A stretch of 50,089 bases of DNA, taken from contig CAZOGW010000005.1 in NCBI GenBank assembly GCA_964579415.1, positions 1-50,089 on the forward strand, read 5' to 3'. The stretch is from an uncultured Acidimicrobiaceae bacterium (GTDB lineage Bacteria > Actinomycetota > Acidimicrobiia > Spongiisociales > UBA5794). Position 1 is the first letter of the stretch; each line of letters begins with the position of its first letter. Positions 1 to 14,030 of this stretch are shown one piece after another. The notes beneath the pieces are model-generated. The model saw nothing but the letters and a program-made list of their open reading frames with translations, was not told where the DNA came from and made no database searches. A program made the translations under genes and the position numbers.

Positions 1-32
1 TCATCGGGGTGTCCCCACCGGTGGCCCTGGGT

Positions 33-389
33 CTAGCGCAGCACCACGTGGTCGCGGTTGATGCGAAGCGGTCGCTCGACCGGGAACTGAGCTGCCAGCT
101 CGATGTGTTCCGCGGCCCACTTCTTCACCCACTCGCGGTCATCCGGGTTCGAGTCGGTGACCCACCCACCTTCCTGGAGGCTTGCGAAGAGCAGGTCGGT
201 GTAGGTGGCGGCGTCCATGTTCAGGTCGCGGGCCACGAAGCAGGTGGTCGCCTTGTGGCTGCCGAACCCTCCCATGGCCCGCTCGCAGCCGCAATCCGGA
301 TTGGCGCACACGAGGGGTGGGAAGTGGACCAACTCACCGGGCACGGCGAACCTCGAAAGTGTTGATATGTAAGGTGTCCAGCCTCTCAT
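33..389 (-). CDS. small conserved hypothetical protein (118 aa), Cys-containing; paralog of 9274..9642
   Basis: Complete ORF with G/C-rich third positions. It aligns end to end with the 9274..9642 product (VPGELVHF, CGC-x-RAMGGF, ATTCFV-RDL, TYTDLLFASL, DDREWV-KWAAEH, RDHVVLR). I cannot name the family. Confidence 0.6.
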   Translation of the reverse strand: MRGWTPYISTLSRFAVPGELVHFPPLVCANPDCGCERAMGGFGSHKATTCFVARDLNMDAATYTDLLFASLQEGGWVTDSNPDDREWVKKWAAEHIELAAQFPVERPLRINRDHVVLR

Positions 390-602
390 CCGTCTCGGCA
401 GAGTCGACGATCCTCAGCCAGGGCACGTCCCGATTTCTCTCACACTCTCATGTATGACGCTTGCGGAGTTGCTCAGCAGTCGGGGCGCGGTGGTGATGCA
501 CCACTCGGCATGACCGGAGCTGATCGGCGAGTGCCGTTTCGCGGGACACCTTTAACTTGGAAGTGAGTGGGAAGCTGTCCGCGTCACCTGGTTCTCACTC
601 CA

Positions 603-628
603 GTCACATCCGCAGCGTTCTGCGGGTC
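603..628 (+). promoter_or_regulatory. candidate ECF41-type promoter (GTCACA-N16-GGTC) upstream of the sigma gene
   Basis: GTCACA at 603..608, a 16-nt spacer, then GGTC at 625..628. The same GTCACATCC-N12-GGGTCA pattern recurs upstream of the epimerase gene. It is one mismatch from the reported ECF41 consensus TGTCACA-N16-CGTC. Confidence 0.45.
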
Positions 629-646
629 AGACTCAGATGAGGCCGC

Positions 647-1558
647 ATGAAGGGAGGGTGTGAACCGGTGGATGAGACTCAGTGGCTGGCCGAGCGCTTC
701 GAAGAACACCGCGGTCGGCTGCGGGCACTGGCCTACCGGATGCTCGGTTCGCTGCCGGCCGCCGACGATGCGGTGCAGGATGCGTGGTTGCGTGTCAGTC
801 GAGCGGGGGCGGGCGACGTCGAGAACCTGGGGGGATGGCTGACGACGATCGTGTCCCGCGTGTGCCTGAACATGCTGCGCTCACGCAACACTCGCCGCGA
901 GGACTTCTTCGGGGTGCAACTACCCGACCCCGTGGTCGCACCGGTCGGTGGGCACCAGCCCGAGGAGGAGGCGATGCTGGCCGAGTCGGTGAGCCTGGCA
1001 CTGCTGGTGGTGCTCGACACGCTGGCCCCGGCCGAGCGGCTGGCATTCGTGCTGCACGACATGTTCCAGTTGCCCTTCGACGAGATCGCCCCGATCGTGG
1101 GACGGAGCCCGGCGGCGGCCAGGCAGCTCGCCAGCCGGGCGCGGCGGCGGGTGAGTGGCGCCGAGTTGCCGGCCCCGGACCCCGACGTGGATCGTCAACG
1201 AGAGGTGGTCGACGCCTTTCTCGCCGCGGCTCGCGGCGGGGACCTCGATGCCCTGGTGGCACTGCTCCATCCCGACGTGGTGCTCCGCTCGGACTGGGGC
1301 GCCCAGCCGCCCGCAGCCTCCGTCGTGGTGCGTGGAGCGGACGCCGTTGCCGGCCTGCCCCACGTGTTCTCCGATCCGACGGCACAGGTGCACCCGGCGC
1401 TGGTGAACGGAGCCGTCGGAATGGTGGTCACCCTGGCCGGCCGGCCCTTCGCCGTGATCGGCTTCACTGTCGTCGAAGACCGGATCGCCGAGATCGACGC
1501 CATCACGGATCCCGACCGCGTTCGGCGCCTCGCCGCCGCCGTGCTCACCGGCGACTAG
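647..1558 (+). CDS. ECF sigma factor with fused C-terminal SnoaL/NTF2-like extension (SigJ / ECF41-like)
   Basis: Sigma2 region (DAVQDAWLRV, WLTTIVSRVCLNMLR), sigma4 region (ERLAFVLHDMFQLPFDEIAPIVGRSPAAARQLASRARRRV), then about 100 extra residues. No anti-sigma gene is adjacent. The true start may be the GTG at 668, which is preceded by AGGGAGGG. Confidence 0.85.
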   Translation: MKGGCEPVDETQWLAERFEEHRGRLRALAYRMLGSLPAADDAVQDAWLRVSRAGAGDVENLGGWLTTIVSRVCLNMLRSRNTRREDFFGVQLPDPVVAPVGGHQPEEEAMLAESVSLALLVVLDTLAPAERLAFVLHDMFQLPFDEIAPIVGRSPAAARQLASRARRRVSGAELPAPDPDVDRQREVVDAFLAAARGGDLDALVALLHPDVVLRSDWGAQPPAASVVVRGADAVAGLPHVFSDPTAQVHPALVNGAVGMVVTLAGRPFAVIGFTVVEDRIAEIDAITDPDRVRRLAAAVLTGD

Positions 1559-2501
1559 CCGCCGACGGGCCGGGCCTGGCCGTCGATGCGTACGCGGCCG
1601 CGAAGCCTTGCCGCCAACTGGGGTGGTGCAGCGTCCATCCCAGCTCGCGCTTGGCTTTGGCGTTGGAAGCGCCGCGGGCCTCCGTCCCCATCATCACCGC
1701 GCCCTGGCCCGCCACCAGCCGGGCAAGCCAGCGAGGGACATGCCGGGGCGGTTGGGCCCCGAGCGCCGTGGCGAGCACCGGTAGCCACTCGCTGACCGGT
1801 GCAGGTTCATCGTCGACGATGTTGTAGATGCCGGCGGAGCCGTGCTCGACGGCCAGCACCGTCGCCGTGGCGGCATCGTCGAGGTGGACGAAGGACGAGA
1901 CACCCATGCCGCTGCCGACGACGGGGAACTGCCGCTTGCGGACCGGCTCGATGATGGCGTCGTTGGCGGCACCGTAGAAGCCCCCGTAGCGGAGGGCGGC
2001 ACCGCCCGCGTCGGTCACCACCCGCTCGAGATACCGCATGGCGGCCTCGGTCCGGCGCATCGTCGCCACCGGGGCGGTGTCGAGCGGATCGTCCTCGGTC
2101 TTGACGGCTCCACCGACGCGGGCATACCGGTTGCTGGCGAAGCTCTGGGCGACGAACCGGTGCACCCCCGCCTCGCCTGCGGCTGCCAGGAGCGCATCGG
2201 TGCCCTCGATCCGAAGCCGGTTCGTCTGCGCGAACACGCGGTCTAGGTTCCTCGAGAAGCGCACTGCCGACAGCGCCGTCGCCTGATGGACGATCGCATC
2301 GGGTCGGGCATGGAGCACCACCTTGCGCCCTGCGCCGGCGTCGAGCAGGTCGAGCGCGACCGGCTCCGCCCCCAGCTTCCTCAGGCGTTCGGCGTTCCCC
2401 GACGATCGGAACGTGCCGCTTACCTGGTGTCCTCTATCGACCAGCTGGGCGACGAGCCGGCTGCCGATCGCACCGCTCGCTCCAGCAACGAACACTCGCA
2501 T
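1545..2501 (-). CDS. NAD(P)-dependent epimerase/dehydratase (SDR) family protein
   Basis: N-terminus MRVFVAGASGAIGSRLV is a Rossmann GxxGxxG motif. The ATG at 2501 is preceded by AAGGAG. The longer ORF up to 2576 adds an Arg-rich leader and is rejected. The 3' end overlaps the sigma gene by 14 nt, convergently. Confidence 0.85.
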   Translation of the reverse strand: MRVFVAGASGAIGSRLVAQLVDRGHQVSGTFRSSGNAERLRKLGAEPVALDLLDAGAGRKVVLHARPDAIVHQATALSAVRFSRNLDRVFAQTNRLRIEGTDALLAAAGEAGVHRFVAQSFASNRYARVGGAVKTEDDPLDTAPVATMRRTEAAMRYLERVVTDAGGAALRYGGFYGAANDAIIEPVRKRQFPVVGSGMGVSSFVHLDDAATATVLAVEHGSAGIYNIVDDEPAPVSEWLPVLATALGAQPPRHVPRWLARLVAGQGAVMMGTEARGASNAKAKRELGWTLHHPSWRQGFAAAYASTARPGPSAASRR

Positions 2502-2563
2502 CGTGTCATCTCCTTTGGTGACGGGTTGGCGTACTGAGCGCCGACTGGCGGTTCTGGTCCCAT

Positions 2564-2589
2564 GACCCGCCGCCACGATGGGATGTGAC
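2564..2589 (-). promoter_or_regulatory. candidate ECF41-type promoter upstream of the epimerase gene
   Basis: The minus strand reads gGTCACAtcccatcgtggcggcgGGTCat: GTCACA, a 16-nt spacer, then GGTC. The implied TSS lies roughly 50 nt upstream of the ATG at 2501. Confidence 0.4.
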
Positions 2590-2730
2590 CGCGGGTCAGG
2601 TCAGGAGGCGGCGTACGCGGCCAGGAAGACGCGCACCGCCTCGTCGGCGTAGCGGTGGAGACCCTTGCGGGGGAACGGGGTGTCGCTGCCGTGGTACAGC
2701 GCCTTGTTGAGCGGGATGGCAGTGAACCTG

Positions 2731-5700
2731 CTAGTCGGGCAGTGGCCACGCCGGACACGTCGAACGACGGGGCTCGGCGGCGCCCATCAGGTCGGTCCAT
2801 TCCTGGGGGGTGAGATTGCGACCGGCGCGACGGCAGGCTTCTTCCCGGAGATCTTCGGTGGCGAGCGATGCCACCCGCACCTCGTGGCCCAGGGGATCGC
2901 CTCCGGCGGCTCCCGAGTAGAGGGTGGAGCCGTCGGGGGAGATGGCGGCGCGTGGTGAGGGGATCACGCCGGACAGCGATCGCCCGGTGGCGATGTCCCA
3001 CATCTCGCTGCCGTGGGATCCCGAGGTCACCAGCAATCCGTTCTCCGAGAACGAGAACGAGGTCGGTGGCACCGTCGCCGCGAACAGGTCGGTGACCGGC
3101 TCCAGGGTCGACGGGTCGCGGAACACGAAGGGCCCGCGGCCTCCGGAGGTGATGAGCAGCCCGTCCGGAGTGAAACCGATGCGCACCGCGTTCTCGATCC
3201 ACCCGACCGGGGTGGCCTCGGCCGGGGTGACGTCCCAGACCACCGAGACGCCGACGGCGCCCATCGCCACCACCAGCGACCGCCCGTCGATCTCCGCCGC
3301 GGCCACCATGCGGGTCTCTCCAGGCAGAGGGGCCACGTCCGAGAGAACCAGCGGGTGGGGGAGGGGGTCGAGGGAACCGGCCTCCCACAGGTGGACATTC
3401 TCGCCCCTGCCCCCGACGGTGGCGACCACCGTCCCGCCGCGGGCGAAGGCGGCGCCGTTCTCGGTGAACGACCACACCTCGCCGGCGTCAACCGGACCGG
3501 CGATCCGCCGGTACGTATCGACATCCCAGACGCTCAGCGACGCCGGGCAATACTCGCCGGTGTCCCGCGGGCAGGTGAGTGTGGCGACCTGGCTTCCGTC
3601 GGGGTTGAACGCAAGGCCGGTGAGGCTGTGCTCGGGGCCGAGATCCAGTGCGCCGGCGTGGTCGAGAGTGTCACGGTCATGGAACTGGACGCCGCGCCCG
3701 GCACCCCACACCGCTAGGACCGAACCGTCGGGCGACAAGCTGACGTGACCGGGGCCGGGAGGCTCGAGCAGGGCGCCGATGTCATCGACGGGGCCCAGGC
3801 TCCACACCGAGATGGAGCCCGCGCCGTCGGCGGTCACCATCGTCGAACCGTCGTCGGCGAAGGCGACGCCCGGGAACCCGTCCTCGATCGAGGTCACCAT
3901 GCCTGCCGTGCCGGCGTCATCGAACCTGGAGAAGAGCTGGAGCTCGACCGGTGATCCGGCGACCACCGTGCCGTCCGGCGCCACCGCCAGCGACACCAGC
4001 CCGGGGACACCGGACTCCCCGAACGGTGCCCCGACAGCCTCGAGGTCCTGCATGGCGAATCGCTGCAGTTGCATCCCGACCATGACCAACTCGTCGGCGC
4101 CGGGGACGGCCACGATGCTGGAGACCGCCTCGGCGAAGCCGGTATCCACCTCCCGGGAGATCACCGACCCTTCCCCCAGGTCGAACAGGTAAAGCACCTC
4201 GGGACCGCCGACAGGCAGCGTCGCCGTTGCCAGCACATCCCCGGATTCGCCGTAGGAAAGTGTGGAGAGCTGCTGGCCGCTCCCGGTGTCGAGCACCTCG
4301 TGCACGGTCCAGTCCCCGACCCGGTATACCTGAATCTCCCCACGGCCATCGGCGACCGCCAGGTGGTCGCCCTCGGGGGAGAACCGCGCCCAGTAGATAT
4401 GGTCGGGCATGCCGGGGAACGCCACCAGTTCCCCTCCCGTGACGGTGTCGTAGACGATGACTGCCGCTCCTCCCTGGCCGATCCCGGATGTGACCACCAT
4501 GGCACCCGTCGGGTGCAGATCGACCCCGTGGACCGGCGCCGGCGGGCCAGGCAGATCAAGGTGACGCACAGAACGGGTGACGAGGTCGACGATGTCAATC
4601 GAGCCGTCGGCCCGCTTGCCCACCGCGATCGACCCATCGGCGGCGGCGGCCAGGGCGCTGTACTCCGGGGCCGGGGTGGGGATGACAGTCCTGGTCGGGC
4701 CCGAGTTGCCGAACAGGGACGCGATGAGGGAGCGACGCGTAGCCGCCGAGTCCTCGAGGCGGTTGGCCTCGACCGCGAGCAGGAGCGCCCGGCTGCGGTC
4801 TTCGGTCACCGCGTCGGTGGCGGCAGCCGCCAGTGCGGCGCTGCGCGCCGATTGAACGGCGCCCGTCTGGTCCTGTGCCCGGTTCCGTTGGCCGACGGCA
4901 ACGAGACCGGCGACGAGGGCGACGACGACCAGGACGGAAGCGGCGAGGAGGAGGCGCCGTAGCCTCCGGTTCATCGAGCGCTGGGCTGCCAACACCTCGT
5001 CACGGGCTGCGATGGACTGCGTCAGGAACTCCTGCTCGGAGGCGGTGATCTGGTCTCGATGGATCTCCGCCCACTCCTCGACGACACCGAGCCGCGATCC
5101 GCTGTACAGATCGCCGGGGTCACACCCGCCCTCATGCCACGATCGCGTCGCCGCCGTCAGCCCGGCCCTGATGGCGAGGCCGGCTCCCTCCTCGTCGATC
5201 CAACCCTGCAGCCGGGGCCAGGAACGGATCAACGCCTCGTGGGCGATCTCGACAGTGGGCTCCCGGGTCTCCGGGTCGCGATCGAAGGTGAGCAGCCGGG
5301 CCTCGCCGAACCGGTCCACCACCCGGTTCATCGCCGCGGCGTCGCCGGAGAGTTGGAGGACCTCGCGGCGGCGCACCCGGTGGCGGACATCATCGATGTC
5401 GCCGTGGCTCACCAGGCGGAGGAACATGCGCCGGGCGCACTCCTGCTCGGCAGGGGAGGCGGAGTCGTGGATGTGTCCGGCCCGTTCGGAAACCGCTCCG
5501 GTGAGCCCTCCGAGTGCCCGGTAGTCGTCGAGGGTGATGGTGTCGCCGCGGCGTCGATCGAACATCTCGGTGAGGCAGTACTGCAGGAGGGGAAGCGCAC
5601 CGGGGTGGTCGGTGGTAGTGGCGACGATCTCGGCGGCCAGGGAGCGGTCGATGGCTACGCCGACCCGTTCCGCCGGGGCGACGATGACCTCCTCGATGTC

Positions 5701-7845
5701 GGCCGGGGACATCGCCACCAGTGGGACGGTGCCTGACGCCACCAGATCTCCCAGTACCGGGTCTTCGAGGGGACGGTCGTAGAAGTCGGCGCGGAGCGTG
5801 GCGACCACGCGCAGCCGGCGGTCCGGCGCGGCGACGGCCTCGGCCAGCCTGGCGACGAACCCACGCCGTACCGCGTCGTCGGCGACCTGGGTGAAGAGCT
5901 CTTCGAGCTGATCGATCACCAGCAGGACATGGCTACCCGGCGGCAGGACACGGTCGAGGGTGGCGTCGATGCCGTTTCGCAGCGGGTCGATCATCCCGGA
6001 AGTGTTTCCCGCGGCGATCTCGGCGATCGCCGACGCCAGCTCGACGAACGGCGATCGGCCGGGGACCATGGTGATGACGAACCAGTCTCCCGAGCCGGGG
6101 AGGGCTCCCTCGCGGAGGCGGGGAACCAGTCCGGCCCGAACCACGCTCGATTTCCCGCTCCCTGAGGCCCCGACCAGTGTTACCAGCGCCGGTGCGGAGT
6201 TTGCGGCCATCAGTGCCAGCAGGAGATCCACCGCGGCTTCGCGGCCGTGGAAGTCGGCGGTGTCCTCTTCGACGAACGGGCGGAGTCCTTTGAATGGATT
6301 CGTTGCGGGGCGATCGGTCCGCCGGGCGCTCTCCCTCATCCGCCCGATCGCGGTTGCGAAGCTGTCCAGGAACGTGGGCACATCCGGGTAGCGGTCTGAA
6401 GGGTCCGGAGCCCCGGCTCGGGCGAGGACACCGTCGAGGGCGAGCAGCTCGGGTCGGATCTGTGACAGTCGCGGGAAGCCGGCTCCGCTCCTGTCGGGCA
6501 GCGGTGGCAGTCCGGCCAGGACGTGATAGGCGAGCGCCGCCAGCGCGAACTGGTCGCGAGCCGCTGCCGGTTCGCCACCCCCGGGCGGCCCGTAGCGGTC
6601 GTCGGGAATCATGGCGGCGATGGAGTCGAGGGCGCGGTCGAGTTCGATGCCACGCACATGAGCGACTCCCTCCCCGTCGAGAATCACGTCGTGCGGTGTC
6701 AGCGCGCCGTGAGCGAGGCCCTCCTCGTGGGCGGCGCCGATGGCTGAAGCCGCCGCTTCGACGATCGATGCCGCCCGCTCCACCGGCAACGGGCCCTTGT
6801 CCTCGATGAGGGTCAGCACCGAGCCGCCTGACAGCGACCGGGTGACGAGGTGAGCCGACCCCGGTTGGCGCCAGAAGTCGAAGATGGGCACCACGTGGCG
6901 ATGCTCGAAGCGGGCGACCCGTCTCACCAGCGCCCCGAACCGCCGGATGAACTCGGGGTGATCGGCAAGGTCCGGTCCGAAAGACTCGACCACTACCTCG
7001 CGCTCCAGGCCCGGCTGGATAGCCCGGTGGGCGGTGCCGTGGCGCCCCCGAGTGGCCTCCCCGACGATCCGGTACCCCTTCAGCTCCGGAGAGGGACCGC
7101 CGAGCAGCCCGGCGTCCTGGACGACGATGCGCTCTTCGAGCTCGAGGAAGGCGGCACCGGGTTCAAGACCGAGCTCGGCCAGGGATGTCCGATAGGAGTC
7201 GCCGGTCCGCAGTGCGTCCGCCTGCCTGCCCGACCGGTACAGCGCAACCATGGCGCTCAACCGCCCCGCCTCGCGTAGCGGGTGCTCGGTGACGAACCGG
7301 AGCAGCCCCGGAGCCGCGGCGGCATGTTCGCCGGCATCGATCTGCGCGCCGAAGCGGAGTTCCTCGGCGGTCAAACGCAGCTCCTCGAGGCGGAGTGCTT
7401 CGGCGTGGACCCACTCCTCGTCGGCGAACTCCGCATAGGCGGCGCCCCTCCACTCGGCCAGCGCCTCGTCGAGCGTGCCGAGTCGCCCGGCGGCGTCGGT
7501 CGGGTCCATCCGCTGCGCCTCGCGGAGCCCATCCTCGAAGCGGATCGCATCGATCGTCGAGCCCGCCAGCGCCAGGGCGTACCCGGGCGGTGCGGTGACG
7601 ATGACCGTGCCCGAGCCGTCGTCGGGGAGAACCCGCCGGAGGCGGGCGATGTAGCTGCGCAGCGTGGTGGTGGCTGCCGCCGTCGGACGGCCCTCGAAGA
7701 CGATGTCCGCCAGCCGGTCGGCATGGACGGTCTGGTCCACGTGGAAGAGGAGGGCGGCGAGCAATCGTCGCTGCCGTCGGCCACCGAGATCGACGATCTC
7801 GCCGGCGGCGGTCACCTCGAGCGGCCCGAGGACTGCGAAGCGCAC
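2731..7845 (-). CDS. 1704-aa multidomain protein: SARP (wHTH+BTAD) - pseudokinase - P-loop STAND NTPase - TM helix - WD40/PD40-like beta-propeller
   Basis: GTG at 7845 preceded by GAGGAGG. Domains, N to C:
- SARP N-terminus VRFAVLGPLEV... followed by BTAD-like helices.
- A kinase-like fold with degenerate catalytic motifs.
- NPFKGLRPFVEEDTADFHGRE, Walker A GASGSGKSS and Walker B LLVIDQLEE.
- A hydrophobic helix LLLAASVLVVVALVAGLVAV flanked by Arg.
- Repeated blade-like segments (SVWSL, SVWDV, HLWEA, VVWDV, EMWDI).
- The tail CRRAGRNLTPQEW. Confidence 0.85.
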   Translation of the reverse strand: MRFAVLGPLEVTAAGEIVDLGGRRQRRLLAALLFHVDQTVHADRLADIVFEGRPTAAATTTLRSYIARLRRVLPDDGSGTVIVTAPPGYALALAGSTIDAIRFEDGLREAQRMDPTDAAGRLGTLDEALAEWRGAAYAEFADEEWVHAEALRLEELRLTAEELRFGAQIDAGEHAAAAPGLLRFVTEHPLREAGRLSAMVALYRSGRQADALRTGDSYRTSLAELGLEPGAAFLELEERIVVQDAGLLGGPSPELKGYRIVGEATRGRHGTAHRAIQPGLEREVVVESFGPDLADHPEFIRRFGALVRRVARFEHRHVVPIFDFWRQPGSAHLVTRSLSGGSVLTLIEDKGPLPVERAASIVEAAASAIGAAHEEGLAHGALTPHDVILDGEGVAHVRGIELDRALDSIAAMIPDDRYGPPGGGEPAAARDQFALAALAYHVLAGLPPLPDRSGAGFPRLSQIRPELLALDGVLARAGAPDPSDRYPDVPTFLDSFATAIGRMRESARRTDRPATNPFKGLRPFVEEDTADFHGREAAVDLLLALMAANSAPALVTLVGASGSGKSSVVRAGLVPRLREGALPGSGDWFVITMVPGRSPFVELASAIAEIAAGNTSGMIDPLRNGIDATLDRVLPPGSHVLLVIDQLEELFTQVADDAVRRGFVARLAEAVAAPDRRLRVVATLRADFYDRPLEDPVLGDLVASGTVPLVAMSPADIEEVIVAPAERVGVAIDRSLAAEIVATTTDHPGALPLLQYCLTEMFDRRRGDTITLDDYRALGGLTGAVSERAGHIHDSASPAEQECARRMFLRLVSHGDIDDVRHRVRRREVLQLSGDAAAMNRVVDRFGEARLLTFDRDPETREPTVEIAHEALIRSWPRLQGWIDEEGAGLAIRAGLTAATRSWHEGGCDPGDLYSGSRLGVVEEWAEIHRDQITASEQEFLTQSIAARDEVLAAQRSMNRRLRRLLLAASVLVVVALVAGLVAVGQRNRAQDQTGAVQSARSAALAAAATDAVTEDRSRALLLAVEANRLEDSAATRRSLIASLFGNSGPTRTVIPTPAPEYSALAAAADGSIAVGKRADGSIDIVDLVTRSVRHLDLPGPPAPVHGVDLHPTGAMVVTSGIGQGGAAVIVYDTVTGGELVAFPGMPDHIYWARFSPEGDHLAVADGRGEIQVYRVGDWTVHEVLDTGSGQQLSTLSYGESGDVLATATLPVGGPEVLYLFDLGEGSVISREVDTGFAEAVSSIVAVPGADELVMVGMQLQRFAMQDLEAVGAPFGESGVPGLVSLAVAPDGTVVAGSPVELQLFSRFDDAGTAGMVTSIEDGFPGVAFADDGSTMVTADGAGSISVWSLGPVDDIGALLEPPGPGHVSLSPDGSVLAVWGAGRGVQFHDRDTLDHAGALDLGPEHSLTGLAFNPDGSQVATLTCPRDTGEYCPASLSVWDVDTYRRIAGPVDAGEVWSFTENGAAFARGGTVVATVGGRGENVHLWEAGSLDPLPHPLVLSDVAPLPGETRMVAAAEIDGRSLVVAMGAVGVSVVWDVTPAEATPVGWIENAVRIGFTPDGLLITSGGRGPFVFRDPSTLEPVTDLFAATVPPTSFSFSENGLLVTSGSHGSEMWDIATGRSLSGVIPSPRAAISPDGSTLYSGAAGGDPLGHEVRVASLATEDLREEACRRAGRNLTPQEWTDLMGAAEPRRSTCPAWPLPD

Positions 7846-8040
7846 GTGAACCTCCTCGCCGAATCCTGGCGAGAGGTTCACACCGGTGCGTTGCAGATGC
7901 GTGGCAGTCGGAAGACCCTGCCGAACTCGGTACTTGGCCGTCGAGAGGGTACCGGGTGGTCCCGACGCCGCAACGCCATTGCCACATCCCGGTGAGAAGG
8001 TCTCCGCCGGAGAAGCAGCCGCCGTCGGCAAGGAGATCCC

Positions 8041-9159
8041 ATGAGCAACACACCGGACACCGGGACGCGGTACCGCCGGACCACCCGCAGCATCCTGACC
8101 GCCGTCGCCGCGCTCGCGGTCCTCATGGTGGCCTGCGGCGATACCAGCGACATGCGCAGCGATGCGACTTCGGCCACCACGGCGCTGCCGCCGGCGACGA
8201 CGTCGACCACCGCGCCACCCCCGACGACGTCGACCACGTCGGCTCCACCGTCGACGACCGTGGCCGACAGCAACGCCGTCACGGCGGAAGTCGAGCGTGC
8301 TGATCCGTCGGTCTTCGACTACGACGTCGCCGCCGACCTCAACTATGAGGAGGATCCCGATGCGTTGGACCTGCCGGTGCCCGGCACCGACGTGCACCCC
8401 TTCGTCTACGACAGCCCGCTGGGGGGACAGGTCACCGGACTCGTCGCCCACCCGCCCGAAGGCGAATCCGACACGGCCATCCTTCTCATGCACGGGATAC
8501 CGGAGGGAACCGAGGCCTACATCGAACCGCTGGTGTTCCTCTCCTGCACCGGGGCAACGGTGCTGGCCATCGACGCTCCTTTCGTACGCGCCGGGCGCGA
8601 GAAGTTGCCGTTGACGTTCACCGAGGCCGACCGGGACGAGCAGATCCAGCTCATCGTCGACCTACGCCGCGCCGTCGACGTGCTCGAAGCGATGGGCGCC
8701 GAGAGGATCACGTTCGACGGGACGAGTTGGGGCTCGGCGATCGGTGCCGTGCTCGCCGGCGTGGAGCCCCGTATCGACGGGTATGCCCTCATGTTGGGAG
8801 GGTCCATCGTCGAATTCTTCTTCAGGGACGGGAGGGCGATCTTCCCCCTCAACTCCTACCCGAAGGACGCTATCGAGAAGTGGGTCGACGTGATGAGCCC
8901 CGTCGACCCGACCCAGTTCGTCGGTGACGCCACCACGCCGATCCTGTTCCAGAACGGTCGCAACGACTCGACCGTCACCCCCGAGAGTGCCGCCAGGTTG
9001 CACGAGGCTGCCGGCCCCGATCACGAGGTCCGCTGGTATCCCGACACCCACGACGGGTCGCCGGAGTTGGTGGTCGAGCACATCCACTGGCAGGCCGGCA
9101 TCCTCGGCCTCGAAGCCGATCGGGTGGACGAGTGCATCGCCCCTCTCGTCGGGGGTTGA
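8041..9159 (+). CDS. lipoprotein, alpha/beta-hydrolase (dienelactone-hydrolase-like) fold
   Basis: Signal peptide and lipobox (AVLMVAC-G), a Thr/Pro-rich linker, a nucleophile elbow GTSWGS, and a late Asp/His region (NGRNDS..., DTHDG). An AAGGAG lies upstream of the ATG. Confidence 0.75.
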   Translation: MSNTPDTGTRYRRTTRSILTAVAALAVLMVACGDTSDMRSDATSATTALPPATTSTTAPPPTTSTTSAPPSTTVADSNAVTAEVERADPSVFDYDVAADLNYEEDPDALDLPVPGTDVHPFVYDSPLGGQVTGLVAHPPEGESDTAILLMHGIPEGTEAYIEPLVFLSCTGATVLAIDAPFVRAGREKLPLTFTEADRDEQIQLIVDLRRAVDVLEAMGAERITFDGTSWGSAIGAVLAGVEPRIDGYALMLGGSIVEFFFRDGRAIFPLNSYPKDAIEKWVDVMSPVDPTQFVGDATTPILFQNGRNDSTVTPESAARLHEAAGPDHEVRWYPDTHDGSPELVVEHIHWQAGILGLEADRVDECIAPLVGG

Positions 9160-9273
9160 GGACGGTGGCCGGCGGGGGAAGGCACCTCGTGCGCCCAGGC
9201 TTGATGAGTGCAGTCGGACCGGTTCCAGTGGTATCGAGGTGGATGTCGGGATGCCGGGGCCGGGTGGCTGCGA

Positions 9274-9642
9274 CTACCGGAGCACTACGTGGTCTCGGTG
9301 GATCTTCAGCGGGCGTTCGGCGGGGAACTGCGCAGCAAGTGCGACGTGCTCAGCTGCCCACTTCTCGACCCACTCCCGGTCGTCGGCACTCTCCTTGGAG
9401 ACCCACCCACCCGCTTCGAGGCTGGCGAACAGCAGGTCGGTGTAGGTCGCCTCGTCGATGTCCAGGTCGCGAACGACGAAGCAGGTCGTCGCCCTGTGGG
9501 AGACGAACCCACCCATGGCCCTGTCGCACCCGCACAACTGATCGGAACAAGCGGCGGGAGCGAAGTGGACGAGTTCGCCCGGGACGGTGAAGACGAAGTC
9601 CCCATCGACTCCCAGTGATTCGATGGCGGTGAACAGCTTCAT
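9274..9642 (-). CDS. small conserved hypothetical protein (122 aa); paralog of 33..389
   Basis: Collinear with the 33..389 product over its whole length. G/C-rich third positions. Confidence 0.65.
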   Translation of the reverse strand: MKLFTAIESLGVDGDFVFTVPGELVHFAPAACSDQLCGCDRAMGGFVSHRATTCFVVRDLDIDEATYTDLLFASLEAGGWVSKESADDREWVEKWAAEHVALAAQFPAERPLKIHRDHVVLR

Positions 9643-9852
9643 GTGAGGCCTCCTCGGCTCGGTGTCCGCAACATACGAGCCAGGTGTGACATCCCCAGGC
9701 GCGGACAGGGGTACCGACGACTACTGGGCCTATGCCGTCGAAGCGGCGGTCGCCCTGATCCGCGCCGCCGCCGAGCGCCTCGGCGTCCCCGTCGAGGACG
9801 CCGCCCGCCGCCTGGCAGGCGTGCACGGAATCGACATCGGTTGAGGGCCCGC

Positions 9853-10350
9853 TCAACCCGTCGACAGTTGGTACGAGCCGGGTTCCCACATGCGGGTGGC
9901 GACGCCGATGGTGTTCCACGCGGTGATGACGATCACCAGACCGATCAGAGCAGCCACCTCGTCGTTGGACCAATGGGCGGCTACCGCCTCGTAGGCGTCG
10001 TCGGGGACGTGGGTGGTGGACATGCGGGCCACGGTCTCGACGAAAGAGATGGCGGCTCGCTCCTGGGGGCTGAAGAACGGGGTCTCTGCCCACACCGCGA
10101 CGCCACTGATGCGCTCCTCGGACTCCCCGGCGGCGCGGGCGTCTTTGGTGTGCATGTCGACGCAGTAGGCGCACCCGTTGATCTGCGAGACGCGTGTCTT
10201 CAGGAGGTGTCTGAGGCCGCCGTCGATGCCGGCATCGTCGAGCTGACGGGTCACGGCGTTCTCCAGGTGTGACACCGCCCGCCCCACGCCGGGGGAATGG
10301 GCGTCGAGGTCGAGGCGGACCGGGATGGCGAAGGTCGTATCTGTAGTCAT
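9853..10350 (-). CDS. carboxymuconolactone decarboxylase / AhpD-like family protein
   Basis: The motif RVSQINGCAYCVDMH (a CxxC in AhpD-core context) and a length of about 165 aa. Confidence 0.85.
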   Translation of the reverse strand: MTTDTTFAIPVRLDLDAHSPGVGRAVSHLENAVTRQLDDAGIDGGLRHLLKTRVSQINGCAYCVDMHTKDARAAGESEERISGVAVWAETPFFSPQERAAISFVETVARMSTTHVPDDAYEAVAAHWSNDEVAALIGLVIVITAWNTIGVATRMWEPGSYQLSTG

Positions 10351-10396
10351 TCCGGCAACCTATCCGGTAAGAGGCTCAGGTGTAAGGTCCACATCT

Positions 10397-11788
10397 ATGC
10401 AAGATGAGTGGGCCACTTTCGGTACCGACCTCCACCTGGAGTTGGCGGGCAACCGCCTTCGTTCCGGCCTGGAGCGCGCCCTGCGCGACGGGGTGCGCAC
10501 CGGGCGGCTCCGTCCCGGTACCCGCCTCCCGTCCTCGCGGTCGCTGGCCCGGGACCTCGGCATCGCCCGCAACACGGTCGCCGACGCCTACGTCCAGCTC
10601 GTGGCGGAGGGCTGGCTCACATCCCGTCACGGCTCCGGCACCTTCGTCGCCGACCACCCGACGACCATCGCGCCCGGCCATGTCGCACCCTCGCCCGCCG
10701 TGTCGCCGATGCGCTTCGACTTGCGGCCCGGGAGACCGGATCTCGGCTCCTTCCCCCGCGCCGCCTGGCTCTCCGCCATGCGGGCCGCGGTCCAGGCGGC
10801 GCCCTACGAAGCCTTCGGGTACGGCGACGCTCGAGGGATGCCCCGGCTGCGCCAATCGCTGGCCTCCTACCTGGGACGGGCGCGGGGAGTCGAAGCCGAT
10901 CCCGAACACATCGTGGTCTGCTCCGGGTTCTCCGACGGGCTCGCCCTCCTTTGCGAGGGGCTGGCGGCGCGGGGCGTCACCGTGCTCGCCACCGAGGGTG
11001 TCGGACACACGTTCCACCGCACCATCGTCCGCCGCCACGGCCTGCGCCACGCCTTCCTCCCGGTCGACGACGACGGAGCGGTCGTCGACGACATGGACGG
11101 GGCCGGTGCCGCCCTCCTCACCCCGGCCCACCAGTTCCCCCTCGGCGTCCCCCTCCACCCGGACCGCCGTCGCCGGGTCACCCGCTGGGCGGCGGAGACC
11201 GGCGCCGTCGTCATCGAGGACGACTACGACGGGGAGTTCCGCTACGACCGCCAGGCGGTGGGGGCGATGCAGGCGCTGGCCCCCGACCACGTCGTCTATG
11301 CGGGCACCACATCGAAGAGCCTGGCCCCGGGCCTGCGCCTGGGATGGCTCGTGGTGCCGCCGACGCTCGTCGAGGACCTGCTGGAGGCACGGGCCGCCAC
11401 CGGACGCACCACATCGGCCCTCGACCAACTCGCCCTGGCGGAGATGATCTCCTCGGGTGCCTACGACCGGCACGTGCGCGCCGCCCGCCTCGCCACCCGG
11501 CGCCGCCGCGACCGCCTGGTGGCCACCCTCGCCGAGAAGGCTCCGGCCGTCACCGTCACCGGCATCGCTGCCGGCCACCACGCGGTGATACGTCTCGCCC
11601 CCGGAGACGACGAGGACTCCGCAATGGCCCGCGCCGCGGCCAACGGCGTGGCCGTCGCCGCCCTGAGAGCGTACGCAACCGAGACTGTCGACCTTGGCCC
11701 GTCGGTCGTCGTCGGCTACGCCACGCCCCCAGAACACGCCTACCCGGCCGCCATCAGCCGGCTCGCCGCCGCGCTGGGGAGGTCATAG
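10397..11788 (+). CDS. MocR/PdxR-type regulator (GntR wHTH fused to a fold-type I aminotransferase domain)
   Basis: The N-terminal segment LPSSRSLARDLGIARNTVADAYVQLVAEGWL is a GntR-type HTH. A long PLP-aminotransferase-like body follows (YGDARGMPRLRQ..., YAGTTSKSLAPGLRLGW). The gene is divergent from the CMD gene. I prefer the ATG at 10397 over 10325. Confidence 0.85.
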   Translation: MQDEWATFGTDLHLELAGNRLRSGLERALRDGVRTGRLRPGTRLPSSRSLARDLGIARNTVADAYVQLVAEGWLTSRHGSGTFVADHPTTIAPGHVAPSPAVSPMRFDLRPGRPDLGSFPRAAWLSAMRAAVQAAPYEAFGYGDARGMPRLRQSLASYLGRARGVEADPEHIVVCSGFSDGLALLCEGLAARGVTVLATEGVGHTFHRTIVRRHGLRHAFLPVDDDGAVVDDMDGAGAALLTPAHQFPLGVPLHPDRRRRVTRWAAETGAVVIEDDYDGEFRYDRQAVGAMQALAPDHVVYAGTTSKSLAPGLRLGWLVVPPTLVEDLLEARAATGRTTSALDQLALAEMISSGAYDRHVRAARLATRRRRDRLVATLAEKAPAVTVTGIAAGHHAVIRLAPGDDEDSAMARAAANGVAVAALRAYATETVDLGPSVVVGYATPPEHAYPAAISRLAAALGRS

Positions 11789-11837
11789 GCGATGTGCCGG
11801 TCGCTCCGTATGGCGCAGTTGCGCCGGTTGCCCCGGA

Positions 11838-12431
11838 TCATCCGACCGCGAGCCGGACGATGGGGCGGGTGGCCTTGCGGCGGGCCACCTCGGTGAAGCC
11901 GAGTCCGAGGAACATGCCCAGGCTTCCCGTGTAGTAGTCGCCGGCGGACCATTGCGCCTTGTCGACCGGATACGCCTCGATGAGAGCAGCCCCGCCGGCC
12001 ACGGCGTAGGCAACCGCGGCCGCGGCGAGCCCGGACGCCACGGCCTTGCGGCGGTACCCGACCCGTACCACGAAACAGTTGATCGACCACGGCTCGGCCT
12101 CGTCCACCGGCCGCACCAGCGGGGAGCGGAGGATGGTGGGGAAGTCACCCCGTGGCCCGACCTGGACCCATCCCACCGGCTCCCCGGCGGCATATCCCAC
12201 CAGGCCTGGCGGCGGACCCTCCCCGACGACGTCGGCGAAGCGGTTGCGGTTGTCCCGATCGTCGCCGAAGCCCCCGTCGGGGCGACGCCAGTACATGCAG
12301 AAACAGCGTCGGGCCACGCCGCGCTCGCCCATGACCCGTTCCACGTCGCCGAAGCGGCCCGGGGTGAGCGGCAGGCACTGCATCGGCCCCAACCCGGTCT
12401 CCGCCACGTGCGACCAGTCCCCGGCAGGCAT
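11838..12431 (-). CDS. GNAT family N-acetyltransferase
   Basis: The C-terminal 197 codons of the long 11838..13745 ORF read as a GNAT (VGWVQVGPR..., FVVRVGYRRKAVASGLAAAAVAYA, EAYPVD). The ATG at 12431 is preceded by GAGGAGGG. The upstream part of that ORF is antisense to the ADH gene. Confidence 0.75.
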   Translation of the reverse strand: MPAGDWSHVAETGLGPMQCLPLTPGRFGDVERVMGERGVARRCFCMYWRRPDGGFGDDRDNRNRFADVVGEGPPPGLVGYAAGEPVGWVQVGPRGDFPTILRSPLVRPVDEAEPWSINCFVVRVGYRRKAVASGLAAAAVAYAVAGGAALIEAYPVDKAQWSAGDYYTGSLGMFLGLGFTEVARRKATRPIVRLAVG

Positions 12432-12605: not shown

Positions 12606-13652
12606 ATGCGTGCGCTCGTTTACCACGGTCCCGGCAACAAGGCCTGGGAGCAAGTACCCGACCCGACGCTCCAGTCGGACACCGACGCCATCGTCAGGGT
12701 TGACTCCGTCACCATCTGCGGCACCGATCTGCACATCCTCAAGGGGGACGTGCCCGCCGTGACCGACGGCCGCATCCTCGGTCACGAGGCGATCGGCACC
12801 GTCCAGGAGGTCGGTGGCGCGGTCAAGAACGTCAAGGTCGGCGACCGGGTCCTCGTCTCCTGTGTCAGCGCCTGCGGCGCCTGCCGCTACTGCCGCCAGG
12901 GCAGCTACGGCCAGTGCCTCGGCGGTGGCGGGTGGATCCTGGGGCACCGGATCGACGGCACCCAGGCCGAGTACGTGCGGGTTCCCTTCGCCGACACCTC
13001 CACCTACCCGGTCCCGGCCGGCGTTTCCGACGAGCAGATGCTGATGCTGGCCGACATCGTCCCCACCAGCTACGAGGTCGGCGCCCTCAACGGCACCGTG
13101 AGCCCCGGTGACGTGGTCGCCATCGTCGGCGCCGGCCCCATCGGGCTGGCCGCCATCATGACCTCGAAGCTGTTCAGCCCGAGCCACATCGTGGCCATCG
13201 ACCTGGCCGACAGCCGCCTCGACGCCGCCAAGCTGTTCGGCGCCGACGTGGTGGTCAACAGCGGAGTGTCCGACCCGATGGAGGTCATCGCCGACCTCAC
13301 CGGTGGACTCGGCGCCGACGTGACCATGGAGGCGGTAGGCATCCCGGCGACCTTCGAGCTGGCCACCCGGATGGTCCGTCCCGGCGGCCACGTCGCCAAC
13401 ATCGGCGTCCACGGCACCCCGGTGACGCTGCATCTCGAAGACCTGTGGATCAAGAACGTCACGATCACCACGGGGCTGGTGGACACGTACTCGACACCGA
13501 CGCTCATCCGGCTCATCACCGGCGGCCAACTCGACACCACCCGCTTCGTGACCCACCGCTTCGCGCTGGACGAGATGATGGATGCCTACGACGTGTTCGG
13601 CCGGGCAGCCGATACCGGCGCCCTCAAGGTGGTGCTCACCAGGTCCGAGTAG
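12606..13652 (+). CDS. zinc-dependent alcohol dehydrogenase (MDR family)
   Basis: Motifs CGTDLH, GHEAIG, the structural-zinc Cys cluster CVSACGACRYCRQG, and GAGPIGL as the Rossmann motif. The RBS AGGAGGAAG lies upstream. Confidence 0.9.
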   Translation: MRALVYHGPGNKAWEQVPDPTLQSDTDAIVRVDSVTICGTDLHILKGDVPAVTDGRILGHEAIGTVQEVGGAVKNVKVGDRVLVSCVSACGACRYCRQGSYGQCLGGGGWILGHRIDGTQAEYVRVPFADTSTYPVPAGVSDEQMLMLADIVPTSYEVGALNGTVSPGDVVAIVGAGPIGLAAIMTSKLFSPSHIVAIDLADSRLDAAKLFGADVVVNSGVSDPMEVIADLTGGLGADVTMEAVGIPATFELATRMVRPGGHVANIGVHGTPVTLHLEDLWIKNVTITTGLVDTYSTPTLIRLITGGQLDTTRFVTHRFALDEMMDAYDVFGRAADTGALKVVLTRSE

Positions 13653-13709
13653 CGCCGGAGCGAACCCGGGTTTCGTGACTCGCTGAGCCGGGTCGGGAAC
13701 CGGCGGGTC

Positions 13710-13768
13710 GGAAGGACCACTCTCTCTCGGGCCTCCCCGCCGCAAGGTCGGGGAGGCCCGGTCCTTCC
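13710..13768 (+). terminator. compound GC-rich hairpin downstream of the ADH gene
   Basis: Outer stem ggaaggacc/ggtccttcc (13710..13718 with 13760..13768). Inner 11-bp stem gggcctccccg/cggggaggccc (13729..13739 with 13749..13759). Confidence 0.6.
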
Positions 13769-14030
13769 GCGTTGACGCCTGGTGGCAGCCCGACGGACCG
13801 GCTCACCCAGCCGCTACGCGACCGGCAGACAGTGGACGGTCCCAAGGTCCTTCCCGGGTACGGTCCGCTTTCCAGGCCAGGTGGCCGCGTGTAAGGTGCC
13901 GACGGCCGGGCATTGCACGGGGCCCGGTCGTGTGGAGGCATCCGTGTTCACTTCGCCGGTCTCCGGTCTGGACAGAGCCTTCCTCGCCTACCGACGGATT
14001 CGCCGTGCGGGACTGAAAGGGGAGAGTCGC

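Follow-up and report, generated by a model that had tools for sequence, protein, structure and literature searches.

A predicted membrane-tethered SARP regulator with a STAND NTPase and outward WD40 propellers, and its candidate esterase target, in an uncultured Acidimicrobiaceae bacterium

One gene of an uncultured Acidimicrobiaceae bacterium joins a SARP DNA-binding module, a protein-kinase fold, an nSTAND1 NTPase, a transmembrane helix and a tandem WD40 double beta-propeller in a single 1704-aa protein (2731..7845, minus strand, of the 50,089-nucleotide stretch analyzed here, hereafter the window). We think that this protein is probably an autoregulated, membrane-tethered SARP activator of N-in/C-out topology, in which the outer propellers gate an NTPase switch that turns on a divergently encoded CE7-like esterase lipoprotein. 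The kinds of protein behind it are known ones, namely the large SARP, the ToxR-like receptor and the STAND protein. The same architecture occurs in at least 118 protein clusters, mostly from Acidimicrobiia, at 33-49% identity; this count comes from the best 120 database clusters, in which two shorter entries, probably truncated, lack the full architecture. An initial reading made from the sequence alone had not recognized any described protein with this five-module join and would have given way if the architecture proved both common and characterized. It is common, a family trait rather than a unique join, yet our literature searches found no paper describing it. Apparently, then, the protein belongs to a widespread, undescribed actinobacterial family.

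The gene is real and correctly delimited. Its 1704 codons run without interruption to a stop codon at 2731-2733, and homologs align over 100% of its length, which shows that neither a frameshift nor an artificial fusion created the ORF. A mechanical ORF extends upstream of the GTG at 7845, up to 8493. We take GTG 7845 as the real start because GAGGAGG lies 5 nt 5' of it and because full-length homologs of 1688-1744 aa share with the protein a V/M-R/K-F-x-V-L-G-P beginning. In this respect the sequence-only reading holds up, as do its five modules, all of which were recovered in the N-to-C order given through Pfam, PDB matches, hydropathy and AlphaFold/Foldseek; its general picture, an activator that is tethered to the membrane, switched by nucleotide and equipped with a large repeat sensor, is likewise supported by these sequence-based predictions. 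The gene is surrounded in the window by metabolic and regulatory genes, including an ECF sigma gene at 647-1558. A second STAND-like NTPase is encoded at 32925-35684, and glycan genes are present elsewhere in the window. There is no antibiotic gene cluster near the regulator gene and no protease gene linked to it in the window, and an Rfam scan of positions 1-12000 gave no match.

The SARP module occupies aa 1-247 (7105..7845, minus strand, as are all segments of this protein). It consists of an OmpR-type winged helix (aa 23-89; 7579-7779), matched by Pfam Trans_reg_C at 28.7 bits against a cut-off of 26.2, and directly after it a BTAD (aa 98-240; 7126-7554; PF03704, E 5.5e-29). The module matches the PDB structures of AfsR (8hvr/8jke) and EmbR (2fez) with E about 1e-26, EmbR being its second-best structural relative. 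NCBIfam AfsR and BagI models match over aa 1-253; the AfsR equivalog, which has a cut-off of 1430 bits, scores 124 bits and covers only aa 1-247 of the 1704-aa protein. The recognition helix, TTTLRSYIARLRRVL (aa 59-73; 7627-7671), is nearly invariant across the family.

The SARP module is followed by a PknI-like protein-kinase fold (aa 256-497; 6355..7080). Pfam Pkinase scores 25.4 bits here, under its cut-off of 31.7, and PknI, the closest solved kinase domain in the PDB, matches aa 256-496 with E 6e-23, so that the fold is kept. The residues that define an active Hanks-type Ser/Thr kinase are all lost: E287 replaces the VAIK Lys, L306 the alphaC Glu and D386 the catalytic Asn, while HRD reads H-G-A and DFG reads G-I-E. 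Judged by these replacements the kinase fold is catalytically dead, as the label of pseudokinase in the sequence-only reading had it. A census of catalytic sites found an intact kinase in about 44% of family members, among them P0021 and P0095, and a decayed one in the 1704-aa protein and its 20 nearest relatives. By analogy with known pathways, the intact kinases probably phosphorylate their own chain in cis, and the decayed kinase of the 1704-aa protein may remain as a scaffold or dimerization module.

The NTPase (aa 517-910; 5116..6297) is a clear nSTAND1 member, covering positions 1-378 of the 379 in profile PF20703 at 364 bits. NPFKGLRPF begins at aa 516, Walker A is GASGSGKSS (aa 559-567; 6145-6171) and Walker B is LLVIDQLEE (aa 641-649; 5899-5925); Walker A and the DQxEE motif are conserved across the family. 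This is not the NB-ARC-type NOD of AfsR-type large SARPs. Among the best 120 hits, the closest nSTAND1 relatives are fused to kinase, SARP, XRE-HTH, cyclase or LuxR domains, and none carries a TIR, caspase or trypsin domain.

A single predicted transmembrane helix (aa 965-985; 4891..4953) separates these modules from the C-terminal part. It is 21 residues long, has a Kyte-Doolittle value of 2.96, is Arg-flanked with NRRLRR before it, and has an equivalent at a conserved position in 118 of the 120 listed clusters. The flanks show a positive-inside bias, with K+R of 5.9 on the N side vs 3.7 on the C side and a richer N-side flank in 106 of 117 family proteins. In sister proteins (P0095), an SBP_bac_1 'extracellular solute-binding' domain stands after the same helix in place of the propellers. 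Beyond the helix, the AlphaFold model of aa 985-1704 (pLDDT 92.6) contains a 60-aa helical stalk, about 55 strands and a two-helix cap. The predicted extracytoplasmic stalk has three helices (aa 986-1045; 4711..4890; helices at 2-61 of the modeled segment). The strands form four-stranded blades in closed propellers, the number of blades being derived from the strand count, and this double propeller spans aa about 1051-1660 (2866..4695). The best Foldseek matches of the C-terminal model are tandem WD40 proteins (2ymu, 4nsx, COPI beta-prime and Apaf-1). The cap (2734..2859) bears CRRAGRNLTPQEW and reads CRRAGRNLTxxEW...TCPxWP; across the family the Cys and motif columns vary little or not at all. 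Cys 1425/1433 in the propellers and Cys 1671/1697 in the cap are at positions conserved in five of five members examined (the query and four others), which is consistent with two disulfides. In place of the TPR sensor of a soluble AfsR-type large SARP, the protein has a transmembrane helix and a WD40 double propeller. The helix, the positive-inside bias, the solute-binding variants and the paired cysteines all agree with a ToxR-like layout, from which we infer an N-in/C-out topology: the SARP module, pseudokinase and nSTAND1 would be cytoplasmic and the stalk, propellers and Cys-bonded cap outside.

Across the gap upstream, 8041..9159 (plus strand) encodes a lipoprotein alpha/beta serine hydrolase with a Cys32 lipobox and a Ser229/Asp309/His337 triad. 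The product matches Pfam Abhydrolase_1; among homologs the triad is invariant and Cys32 nearly so. Its AlphaFold model (pLDDT 85) best resembles CE7 acetyl xylan esterase and cephalosporin C deacetylase in Foldseek, with TM about 0.72. The sequence-only reading had taken the 195-bp divergent gap before this gene as the regulator's candidate target and had pointed to a CGGTAC-N15-GTACCG palindrome within it. Both the gap and the palindrome (7928-7954) are present, and the hydrolase is now the best candidate target, with a conserved SARP-type box that also occurs at orthologs adjoining such regulators. As an operator, though, the palindrome must be given up: with 11 inverted pairs, itself included, in the 195-bp gap it does not exceed chance, it lies between the two boxes described below, and it is absent from related loci; in L003 the two boxes are merely 2 bp apart and it is not kept. 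SARPs bind direct, not inverted, repeats (PMC10936776), and since direct repeats are what is conserved here, the palindrome is disfavored. The classical TCGAG SARP heptamers were also considered; there is a single TCGAGAG at 7941-7947, with no partner at 11 or 22 bp.

What the gap does contain is a pair of predicted SARP boxes of the form TGC(C/A)AC-N5-TGC(C/A)AC; a -10-like NANNNT comes 10 nt after the second hexamer. Known SARP promoters carry direct repeats at a distance of 11 or 22 bp that overlap the -35, and 8 bp separate the 3' repeat from the -10 (PMC10936776); the spacing found here fits, because 10 nt after the hexamer is 8 nt after an 8-bp core. The box at the regulator promoter (7874..7906, minus strand) is an exact match, TGCCAC(7906-7901)-N5-TGCAAC(7895-7890)-N10-GAACCT(7879-7874), and that at the esterase promoter (7969..8001, plus strand) reads CGCAAC(7969-7974)-N5-TGCCAC(7980-7985)-N10-GAAGGT(7996-8001), with one mismatch in the first repeat. 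Using the composite pattern [TC]GC[AC]A[CT]-N5-[TC]GC[AC]A[CT]-N10-NANNNT, we found exactly two matches in the 50-kb window where 0.005 are expected, both in the 195-bp gap, one facing each gene. A third window match with one mismatch, at 42147-42163, falls within a gene for adenosine deaminase that is read from the opposite strand; we take it as chance because it fails the composite pattern and 0.72 loose matches are expected. Scans of 7700-8200 for sigma-70 consensus promoters and terminators returned nothing, and no -35 consensus, as would be expected of activator-dependent promoters in high-GC DNA.

The box recurs across the family. It stands at the same position before the regulator gene in 14 related loci, and 20 family loci hold 25 composite matches, all at promoter positions and all with the repeat spacing and -10 distance of a SARP target promoter, against none in 53 control loci (632 kb) with unrelated SARPs. 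NANNNT is found at +10 in 20 of 34 distinct sites vs a background of 2.3%. The remaining sites belong for the most part to promoters with three repeats, at offsets 0/11/33, where it is the third repeat that carries the -10 at +10. Boxes precede the hydrolase orthologs in L003/L082-85, L080 and L081 and the divergent genes in L001, L004 and L005; wherever a hydrolase ortholog adjoins such a regulator it is boxed, even when relocated downstream of the regulator. The box was found and first counted on the same loci, and the out-of-sample loci are L080 and L081, plus L082-85, which are near-identical to L003. Fetched through the hydrolase, L080 (75% identity) and L081 are both boxed before it, in L081 with the hydrolase downstream of the regulator. 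A clear upstream box is lacking at L081's own promoter and at L010, L013, L020 and L064, where some start coordinates are uncertain. As a negative control, the promoters of hydrolase homologs beside LysR regulators (L075-78) have no box; the small SARP beside a hydrolase homolog in Phytoactinopolyspora endophytica (L079) is unrelated to the SARP module and also has none. In the clade with solute-binding sensors the recognition helix differs (GTLHSYISHLRKAL vs TTLRSYVARLRR), and the one locus sampled there has a different 11-bp direct repeat, CGCTTGA-N4-CGCTTGA, so that, on the strength of that one locus, recognition helix and box seem to co-vary.

Few neighbors are conserved across the family: only the hydrolase, in the close clade to which its linkage is confined, and a small downstream gene, in the distant clade, recur, and at the family loci the genes for the epimerase, the ECF sigma factor and the DUF7715 protein are not kept as neighbors. 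In the distant members the boxed target is a different one, a small repeat-peptide membrane protein. One lineage carries the module amid toxin-antitoxin genes, IS elements and a group II intron, and at the locus of relative P0002 a Peptidase_S8 gene lies immediately downstream.

These observations are suggestive of a mechanism wherein a single polypeptide would serve as a whole transmembrane signaling pathway. By analogy with AfsR and other STAND proteins, an extracellular ligand on the propellers could drive nucleotide-dependent oligomerization of nSTAND1, which would gather the SARP modules on DNA while the protein is still in the membrane, as ToxR and CadC do. Comparative genomics would place two SARP protomers side by side on the 11-bp-spaced direct repeat, which overlaps the -35 region and precedes a weak -10 (NANNNT) by 10 nt. 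Bound in this way, they would activate both divergent promoters of the 195-bp gap, the regulator's own, in positive autoregulation, and that of the CE7-like esterase lipoprotein; here we follow the precedent of SARPs, which activate transcription by recruiting RNA polymerase, in assuming activation and not repression. For the ligand, the esterase fold and the glycan genes in the window suggest an acetylated glycan or a cell-envelope fragment, which is a reasonable guess but a weak one. In family members with a live kinase, the chain may be the equivalent of an AfsK->AfsR or PknH->EmbR pair joined in a single polypeptide. We know of no described STAND NTPase with an extracytoplasmic sensor.

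Several other explanations deserve weighing. The membrane form could be inactive, with signal-dependent proteolysis, as for anti-sigma factors and in regulated intramembrane proteolysis, freeing the SARP-pseudokinase-NTPase part to activate the boxes. Release by a site-2 protease is a common solution, a cytoplasmic part of roughly 960 aa has to reach DNA, and P0002 offers a neighboring peptidase gene; still, ToxR, CadC and TcpP bind DNA while membrane-bound and the window has no linked protease gene, and we regard release as unlikely. We give somewhat less credence to an NLR-like conflict or immunity sensor, in which nSTAND1 and WD40 would detect a cue from an invader or competitor, the SARP module would mount a defense transcription program and the exported hydrolase would be the effector. 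nSTAND1 was defined in predicted counter-invader systems (PMC8195603), WD40 sensors occur in defense STANDs (PMC13581612), and both the lineage with toxin-antitoxin genes and the second STAND-like NTPase of the window could be read this way. However, PADLOC defense models gave only generic kinase-fold matches and no Avs or STAND model, and, unlike a known anti-phage STAND, the protein has no effector domain and its neighbors in the window are not defense genes but metabolic and regulatory ones. Among the best 120, the closest nSTAND1 relatives bear signaling outputs rather than TIR, caspase, nuclease or trypsin domains. What the boxes precede are genes for exported proteins, the esterase lipoprotein among them, rather than typical abortive-infection effectors, and the sensor is predicted to lie outside, whereas characterized defense STANDs sense phage proteins in the cytoplasm.

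It is very unlikely that the TGCCAC repeats are bound by another factor, or that the SARP module represses, so that the large protein is not a direct activator of the hydrolase. Binding is deduced from co-occurrence and an ECF sigma gene is nearby, but the boxes travel with the regulator across highly divergent loci whose neighbors are otherwise unrelated, their spacing and -10 distance are a SARP signature, the recognition helix appears to co-vary with the box at the one SBP-clade locus, and the promoters lack a -35 consensus, as promoters that depend on an activator should. Hardly credible at all is a soluble, Apaf-1-like STAND regulator whose hydrophobic segment does not span the membrane and whose propellers are cytoplasmic. 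Well-studied STAND proteins with WD40 sensors are all soluble and the Foldseek matches include the Apaf-1 propellers; against this stand the length, hydropathy, conservation and positive-inside bias of the helix, the sister clades that place an extracellular solute-binding domain after it, and the conserved paired cysteines in the C-terminal part.

The prevailing view has STAND/NLR proteins sensing in the cytoplasm and SARPs acting as soluble regulators, mostly of antibiotic clusters. If the membrane-tethered activator we favor is real, both concepts would broaden to take in a STAND switch that links an extracellular propeller to a SARP output, and the family would illustrate how actinobacteria can merge a eukaryote-like route from kinase to regulator into one receptor. 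The wider proposal, on which we are evenly divided, is that the family constitutes an undescribed, widespread actinobacterial receptor class: the first STAND (NLR-type) NTPase with its sensor outside the cell, in one chain with a SARP output and a live or decayed kinase, an AfsK/AfsR- or PknH/EmbR-type pathway collapsed into one protein, with interchangeable external sensors (double WD40, solute-binding domain and others) and a self-contained regulon with its own direct-repeat box. The system is small and testable: besides the single gene it comprises two predicted operators, both inside 195 bp, and the esterase as reporter target. Swapped sensors (WD40, solute-binding domain) and live and dead kinases provide a natural series for the contributions of kinase and NTPase. 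The family is common in Acidimicrobiia, abundant and poorly studied bacteria of soil and water in which almost no regulatory circuit is known.

AfsK, of the AfsK/AfsR pathway of Streptomyces coelicolor, is a Ser/Thr kinase with beta-propeller-type repeats, so that a Hanks-type kinase and propeller repeats belong to the same pathway there as here. AfsR has a homologous SARP module (8hvr/8jke) followed, as here, by a STAND NTPase, and the predicted operators have the layout of its afs box, in which two 11-bp direct repeats overlap the -35 (PMC10936776). Unlike that pair, the 1704-aa protein is one polypeptide with a dead kinase and no antibiotic cluster nearby, and it has nSTAND1 and a WD40 part beyond a transmembrane helix where AfsR has NB-ARC and TPR. 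The receptor Ser/Thr kinase PknH of Mycobacterium tuberculosis phosphorylates the SARP regulator EmbR; the likeness lies in the SARP module of EmbR and the kinase domain of PknI, but the mycobacterial proteins are separate and without a STAND NTPase, EmbR reads phosphorylation through an FHA domain, and in our protein the kinase forms one chain with the SARP module and is inactive. PknD, a kinase-TM-extracellular NHL propeller protein, is parallel in topology.

ToxR, CadC and TcpP are membrane-bound one-component regulators that bind DNA while tethered, and they share with the 1704-aa protein an N-terminal cytoplasmic OmpR-type winged helix, one transmembrane helix and an extracytoplasmic sensor. 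Homology to them is limited to the winged helix; the hosts of our family are Gram-positive actinobacteria, and a BTAD, a kinase fold and a 400-aa NTPase are inserted between DNA-binding domain and membrane. Bacteroides hybrid two-component systems such as BT4663 have periplasmic tandem beta-propellers, a membrane span, cytoplasmic signaling and a DNA-binding domain in one chain. The logic is alike, an outward double propeller and the protein's own DNA-binding output controlling adjacent exported-hydrolase genes, whereas the parts (histidine kinase, receiver and AraC vs NTPase, kinase fold and SARP) and the polarity of the chain differ, and there is no sequence relationship. The nSTAND1 proteins of predicted conflict systems, which carry death or effector-adaptor domains and FGS/CLec sensors (Kaur, Iyer, Burroughs, Aravind, eLife 2021; PMC8195603), belong to the same NTPase family, PF20703; the branch described here departs from them in its transcription-factor output, its membrane span and its predicted external WD40 sensor. 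Among the nSTAND1 relatives listed, kinase-STAND fusion is the commonest architecture. M. tuberculosis PknK is a kinase with a STAND-type ATPase, the same combination as in the 1704-aa protein.

The regulator gene (2731..7845, minus strand) runs for 1704 codons without a stop. Its mechanical open reading frame extends further 5', to 8493, but the GTG at 7845 is the true start: GAGGAGG is located 5 nt upstream of it and more than 100 homologues of similar length to the regulator share the N-terminus V/M-R/K-F-x-V-L-G-P. Homologues of 1688-1744 aa cover 100% of the query, which shows that no fusion was created by sequencing or assembly. The sequence-only reading had proposed a single ORF from this GTG encoding five modules, and both the frame and the order of the modules held up in profile and structure searches. 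Profile searches placed the SARP module in Trans_reg_C (aa 23-89) and BTAD (aa 98-240), and aa 1-247 match the structures of AfsR and EmbR (E ~1e-26). The nSTAND1 NTPase spans aa 517-910 (364 bits), with Walker A at aa 559-567 and Walker B at aa 641-649, and is followed by a 21-residue hydrophobic segment at aa 965-985, the predicted transmembrane (TM) helix. AlphaFold modeled the C-terminal part with high confidence (pLDDT 92.6, pTM 0.87) as a three-helix stalk, about 55 beta-strands and a two-helix cap, and the structures it matches best (2ymu, Utp21, COPI beta-prime and Apaf-1) are tandem WD40 double propellers.

The kinase fold falls below the Pfam Pkinase cut-off (25.4 against 31.7 bits), and Mycobacterium tuberculosis PknI matches it across aa 256-496 (E 6e-23). 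In the residue alignment to PknI, no catalytic residue is retained: Glu287 replaces the VAIK Lys and Leu306 the alphaC Glu, Asp386 stands at the site of the catalytic Asn, and the HRD and DFG motifs read HGA and GIE. The module is a pseudokinase, as the earlier description had it.

A database search with the regulator returned 3711 proteins at E <= 1e-10. All of the best 120 clusters among them combine BTAD, Pkinase and nSTAND1 at 33-49% identity, and most also carry WD40 and measure 1590-1975 aa. The architecture defines a family and is no one-off. Most members derive from Acidimicrobiia metagenome bins (Ilumatobacter, Microthrixaceae), a few from Propionibacteriales (Nocardioides guangzhouensis, Marmoricola). 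Their database annotation is only generic, and a full-text literature search found no paper on the SARP/kinase/nSTAND1/WD40 combination, in line with the earlier remark that no described protein joins all five modules. Of 117 members, 51 retain an intact kinase (Lys, HRD Asp, Asn, DFG Asp); in the other 66, which include the query and its 20 closest relatives, it is degenerate, with several differing patterns. The closest relative on a long contig (L001) also encodes, 2 kb away and beyond a Peptidase_S8 gene, an 1815-aa paralogue with kinase, nSTAND1 and WD40 and without the SARP module (13281-17217, minus strand).

A hydrophobic helix sits at the equivalent site in 118 of the 120 listed clusters, the other two being shorter, probably truncated entries. 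In the regulator, NRRLRR lies directly N-terminal of it. Across the family, Lys and Arg are more abundant on the N-terminal than on the C-terminal flank (5.9 against 3.7, N-side richer in 106/117 proteins), which predicts an N-in/C-out orientation. The segment C-terminal of the helix is swappable between members. One clade carries an SBP_bac_1 extracellular solute-binding domain in place of the propellers, as in P0095 (SARP, active kinase, nSTAND1, TM ~993, SBP 1181-1410), and some other members have no recognisable domain there. Four C-terminal cysteines, at 1425/1433 and 1671/1697 in the query, occupy the same positions in 5/5 members examined, consistent with two disulfides. Together, the position and charge bias of the helix, the swappable C-terminal domain and the conserved cysteines argue that the propellers face outward.

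Side-by-side comparison of the upstream regions of close relatives revealed a direct repeat, TGC(C/A)AC-N5-TGC(C/A)AC, with an 11-bp period and oriented like the regulator gene. An exact-match scan placed this box 55-95 bp 5' of the regulator's start codon at 14 family loci, directly 3' of the large gene at nine, and at none of 58 loci linked solely through an unrelated SARP domain; the box definition and the first count share overlapping data, and since L002 duplicates L005 and L082-85 are nearly identical to L003, the raw counts overstate the number of independent lineages. At some family loci no clear box is present or the start coordinate is uncertain. A -10-like NANNNT follows exactly 10 nt past the second hexamer at 20 of 34 distinct sites, against a background of 2.3%; most remaining sites have three repeats at offsets 0, 11 and 33, with NANNNT at +10 of the third. 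This arrangement is the published SARP promoter signature, in which direct repeats spaced by one or two helical turns overlap the -35 and the 3' repeat lies 8 bp from a weak -10 (PMC10936776).

In the 50 kb of the source genome that were scanned, the composite pattern occurs exactly twice, against 0.005 expected from Markov shuffles, and both copies fall inside the 195-bp divergent gap. One faces the regulator (7906->7874, minus strand, TGCCAC-GCATC-TGCAAC-N10-GAACCT) and the other the hydrolase gene (7969->8001, plus strand, CGCAAC-GCCAT-TGCCAC-N10-GAAGGT). The implied leaders are ~22 nt and ~33 nt, respectively, each containing the ribosome binding site (RBS). No sigma-70 consensus promoter was found in the gap, as expected if these promoters are activator-dependent. 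A 9-nt perfect inverted repeat (7846-7854 and 7873-7881, GTGAACCTC and GAGGTTCAC, 18-nt loop) links the stretch before the start codon, where it overlaps the 3' part of the RBS, to the predicted -10; for an RNA hairpin to form here, transcription would have to start upstream of the predicted site.

Proteins with the TGCCAC box share a nearly invariant recognition helix, TTLRSY(V/I)ARLRR. In the SBP clade it is replaced by GTLHSYISHLRKAL, and the one sampled locus has a different 11-bp direct repeat, CGCTTGA-GGTC-CGCTTGA, 5' of the gene, a single case of co-variation between helix and box. There (L086, 6900-6960, upstream of the SBP-type P0115), the repeat is accompanied by an inverted half-site, and the product of the divergent gene (6293-6880, minus strand) is secreted and has an HEMGH metalloprotease motif.

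The product of the hydrolase gene (8041..9159, plus strand) is a lipoprotein made up of a signal sequence with Cys32, a Thr/Pro/Ser linker and an alpha/beta hydrolase domain with invariant Ser229, Asp309 and His337. Its model (pLDDT 85) is nearest to CE7 acetyl xylan esterases and cephalosporin C deacetylase (TM-score ~0.72, identity just 17%). Four further lineages have an orthologue next to the regulator: it is divergently oriented in L003 and L082-85 (55-59% identity), second in a divergent operon in L001 (37%), on the same strand 3' of the regulator in L081 (61%), and in L080 (75%) on a short contig that ends 112 nt 5' of the gene. In all of these, a box with correctly spaced NANNNT precedes the hydrolase gene or operon. 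As L080 and L081 were fetched via the hydrolase after the pattern was defined, they serve as an out-of-sample check. Promoters of hydrolase homologues adjoining LysR regulators lack the box. The earlier suggestion that the divergent gap to the hydrolase gene is the candidate target gains support from the facing box and its retention wherever the orthologue adjoins the regulator. In L003 and L082-85 (P0007/P0008/P0009), regulator, hydrolase and a gene for a 183-aa secreted protein form a three-gene module, nearly identical on several contigs. Its flanks differ and contain ISL3 and IS110 transposases, a group II intron reverse transcriptase and many toxin-antitoxin pairs, which suggests mobility or location in a variable island.

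Other members have other boxed neighbors. In the close relatives L004 and L005, a second, reversed box faces the divergent genes, whose products are both secreted: another alpha/beta hydrolase and a protein of 235 aa. In the more distant clade, the boxed gene is the immediate 3' neighbor of the regulator, on the plus strand behind three TGCCAC repeats (L007 11378-11773, L008 11115-11579, L009 11075-11596, L012 11125-11607, L016 11076-11543, L017 11272-11838). It encodes a small, single-pass, N-in membrane protein of ~130-190 aa with 3-5 external tandem peptide repeats (AEHGSI[TR]AIEHRDE..., e.g. AEHGSITAIEHRDE; GVGDAKDHPGFGPG in L012). This protein matches no Pfam family, has no counterpart within the window, and could be a ligand precursor or propeller co-receptor. 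Every predicted target is thus an exported or membrane protein.

With its winged helix, BTAD and predicted direct-repeat promoters, the regulator fits the definition of a SARP. It falls outside the AfsR-type large SARPs, having an nSTAND1 NTPase in place of NB-ARC and a WD40 sensor past a predicted membrane span in place of TPR; the AfsR model covers just aa 1-247. Functionally it resembles AfsK and AfsR, or PknH and EmbR, fused into one protein. Its predicted topology is like that of ToxR and CadC, and its proposed logic like that of Bacteroides hybrid two-component systems, which join an external double propeller to a DNA-binding output in one membrane protein and control adjacent exported hydrolases.

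We propose that the regulator sits N-in/C-out and that ligand binding by the propellers would drive nucleotide-dependent oligomerisation of nSTAND1, aligning SARP modules. Two modules could then lie side by side on the two repeats, in the manner of the AfsR initiation complex, and switch on both gap promoters, giving positive autoregulation and esterase induction. The pseudokinase may be a structural remnant of a cis-phosphorylation step still active in other members. An acetylated glycan or cell-envelope fragment is a plausible but weak guess for the ligand, based on the CE7-like target and on the GH3 enzyme and sugar ABC system in the window.

That the cytoplasmic part is freed by proteolysis instead of acting while tethered is a less probable alternative. 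That the hydrophobic segment, with its conserved site and charge-biased flanks, does not span the membrane is unlikely, as is binding of these family-associated boxes by another factor. A defence role like that of NLRs would suit the history of nSTAND1 and the mobile-element surroundings in one lineage, but PADLOC matches only the kinase fold, the fusion partners of the 120 closest nSTAND1 relatives are kinases, SARP, XRE-HTH, cyclase or LuxR domains and not death effectors, and the sensor is predicted to be external; we consider such a role unlikely. The regulator is better read as a membrane-tethered activator.

The window's sole hint at the organism's substrates is a sugar-utilisation cluster (19149-25914, plus strand) with a LacI regulator, an SBP_bac_1 solute-binding protein and a GH3 enzyme of 1069 aa, beta-xylosidase/alpha-L-arabinosidase-like with a ~300-aa N-terminal extension. 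A second STAND-like P-loop protein of 919 aa (32925-35684, plus strand) matches AAA_16, with weak N-terminal nSTAND5 and nSTAND1 matches; neither an output nor a sensor domain could be recognised in it. A gene for an ECF sigma factor that carries a SnoaL-like domain as a fusion (647-1558, plus strand) is convergent with the epimerase gene that follows the regulator and is not a conserved neighbor in relatives. DUF7715 paralogues (33-389 and 9274-9642, both minus strand) lie on either side of the regulator locus, ~9 kb apart.
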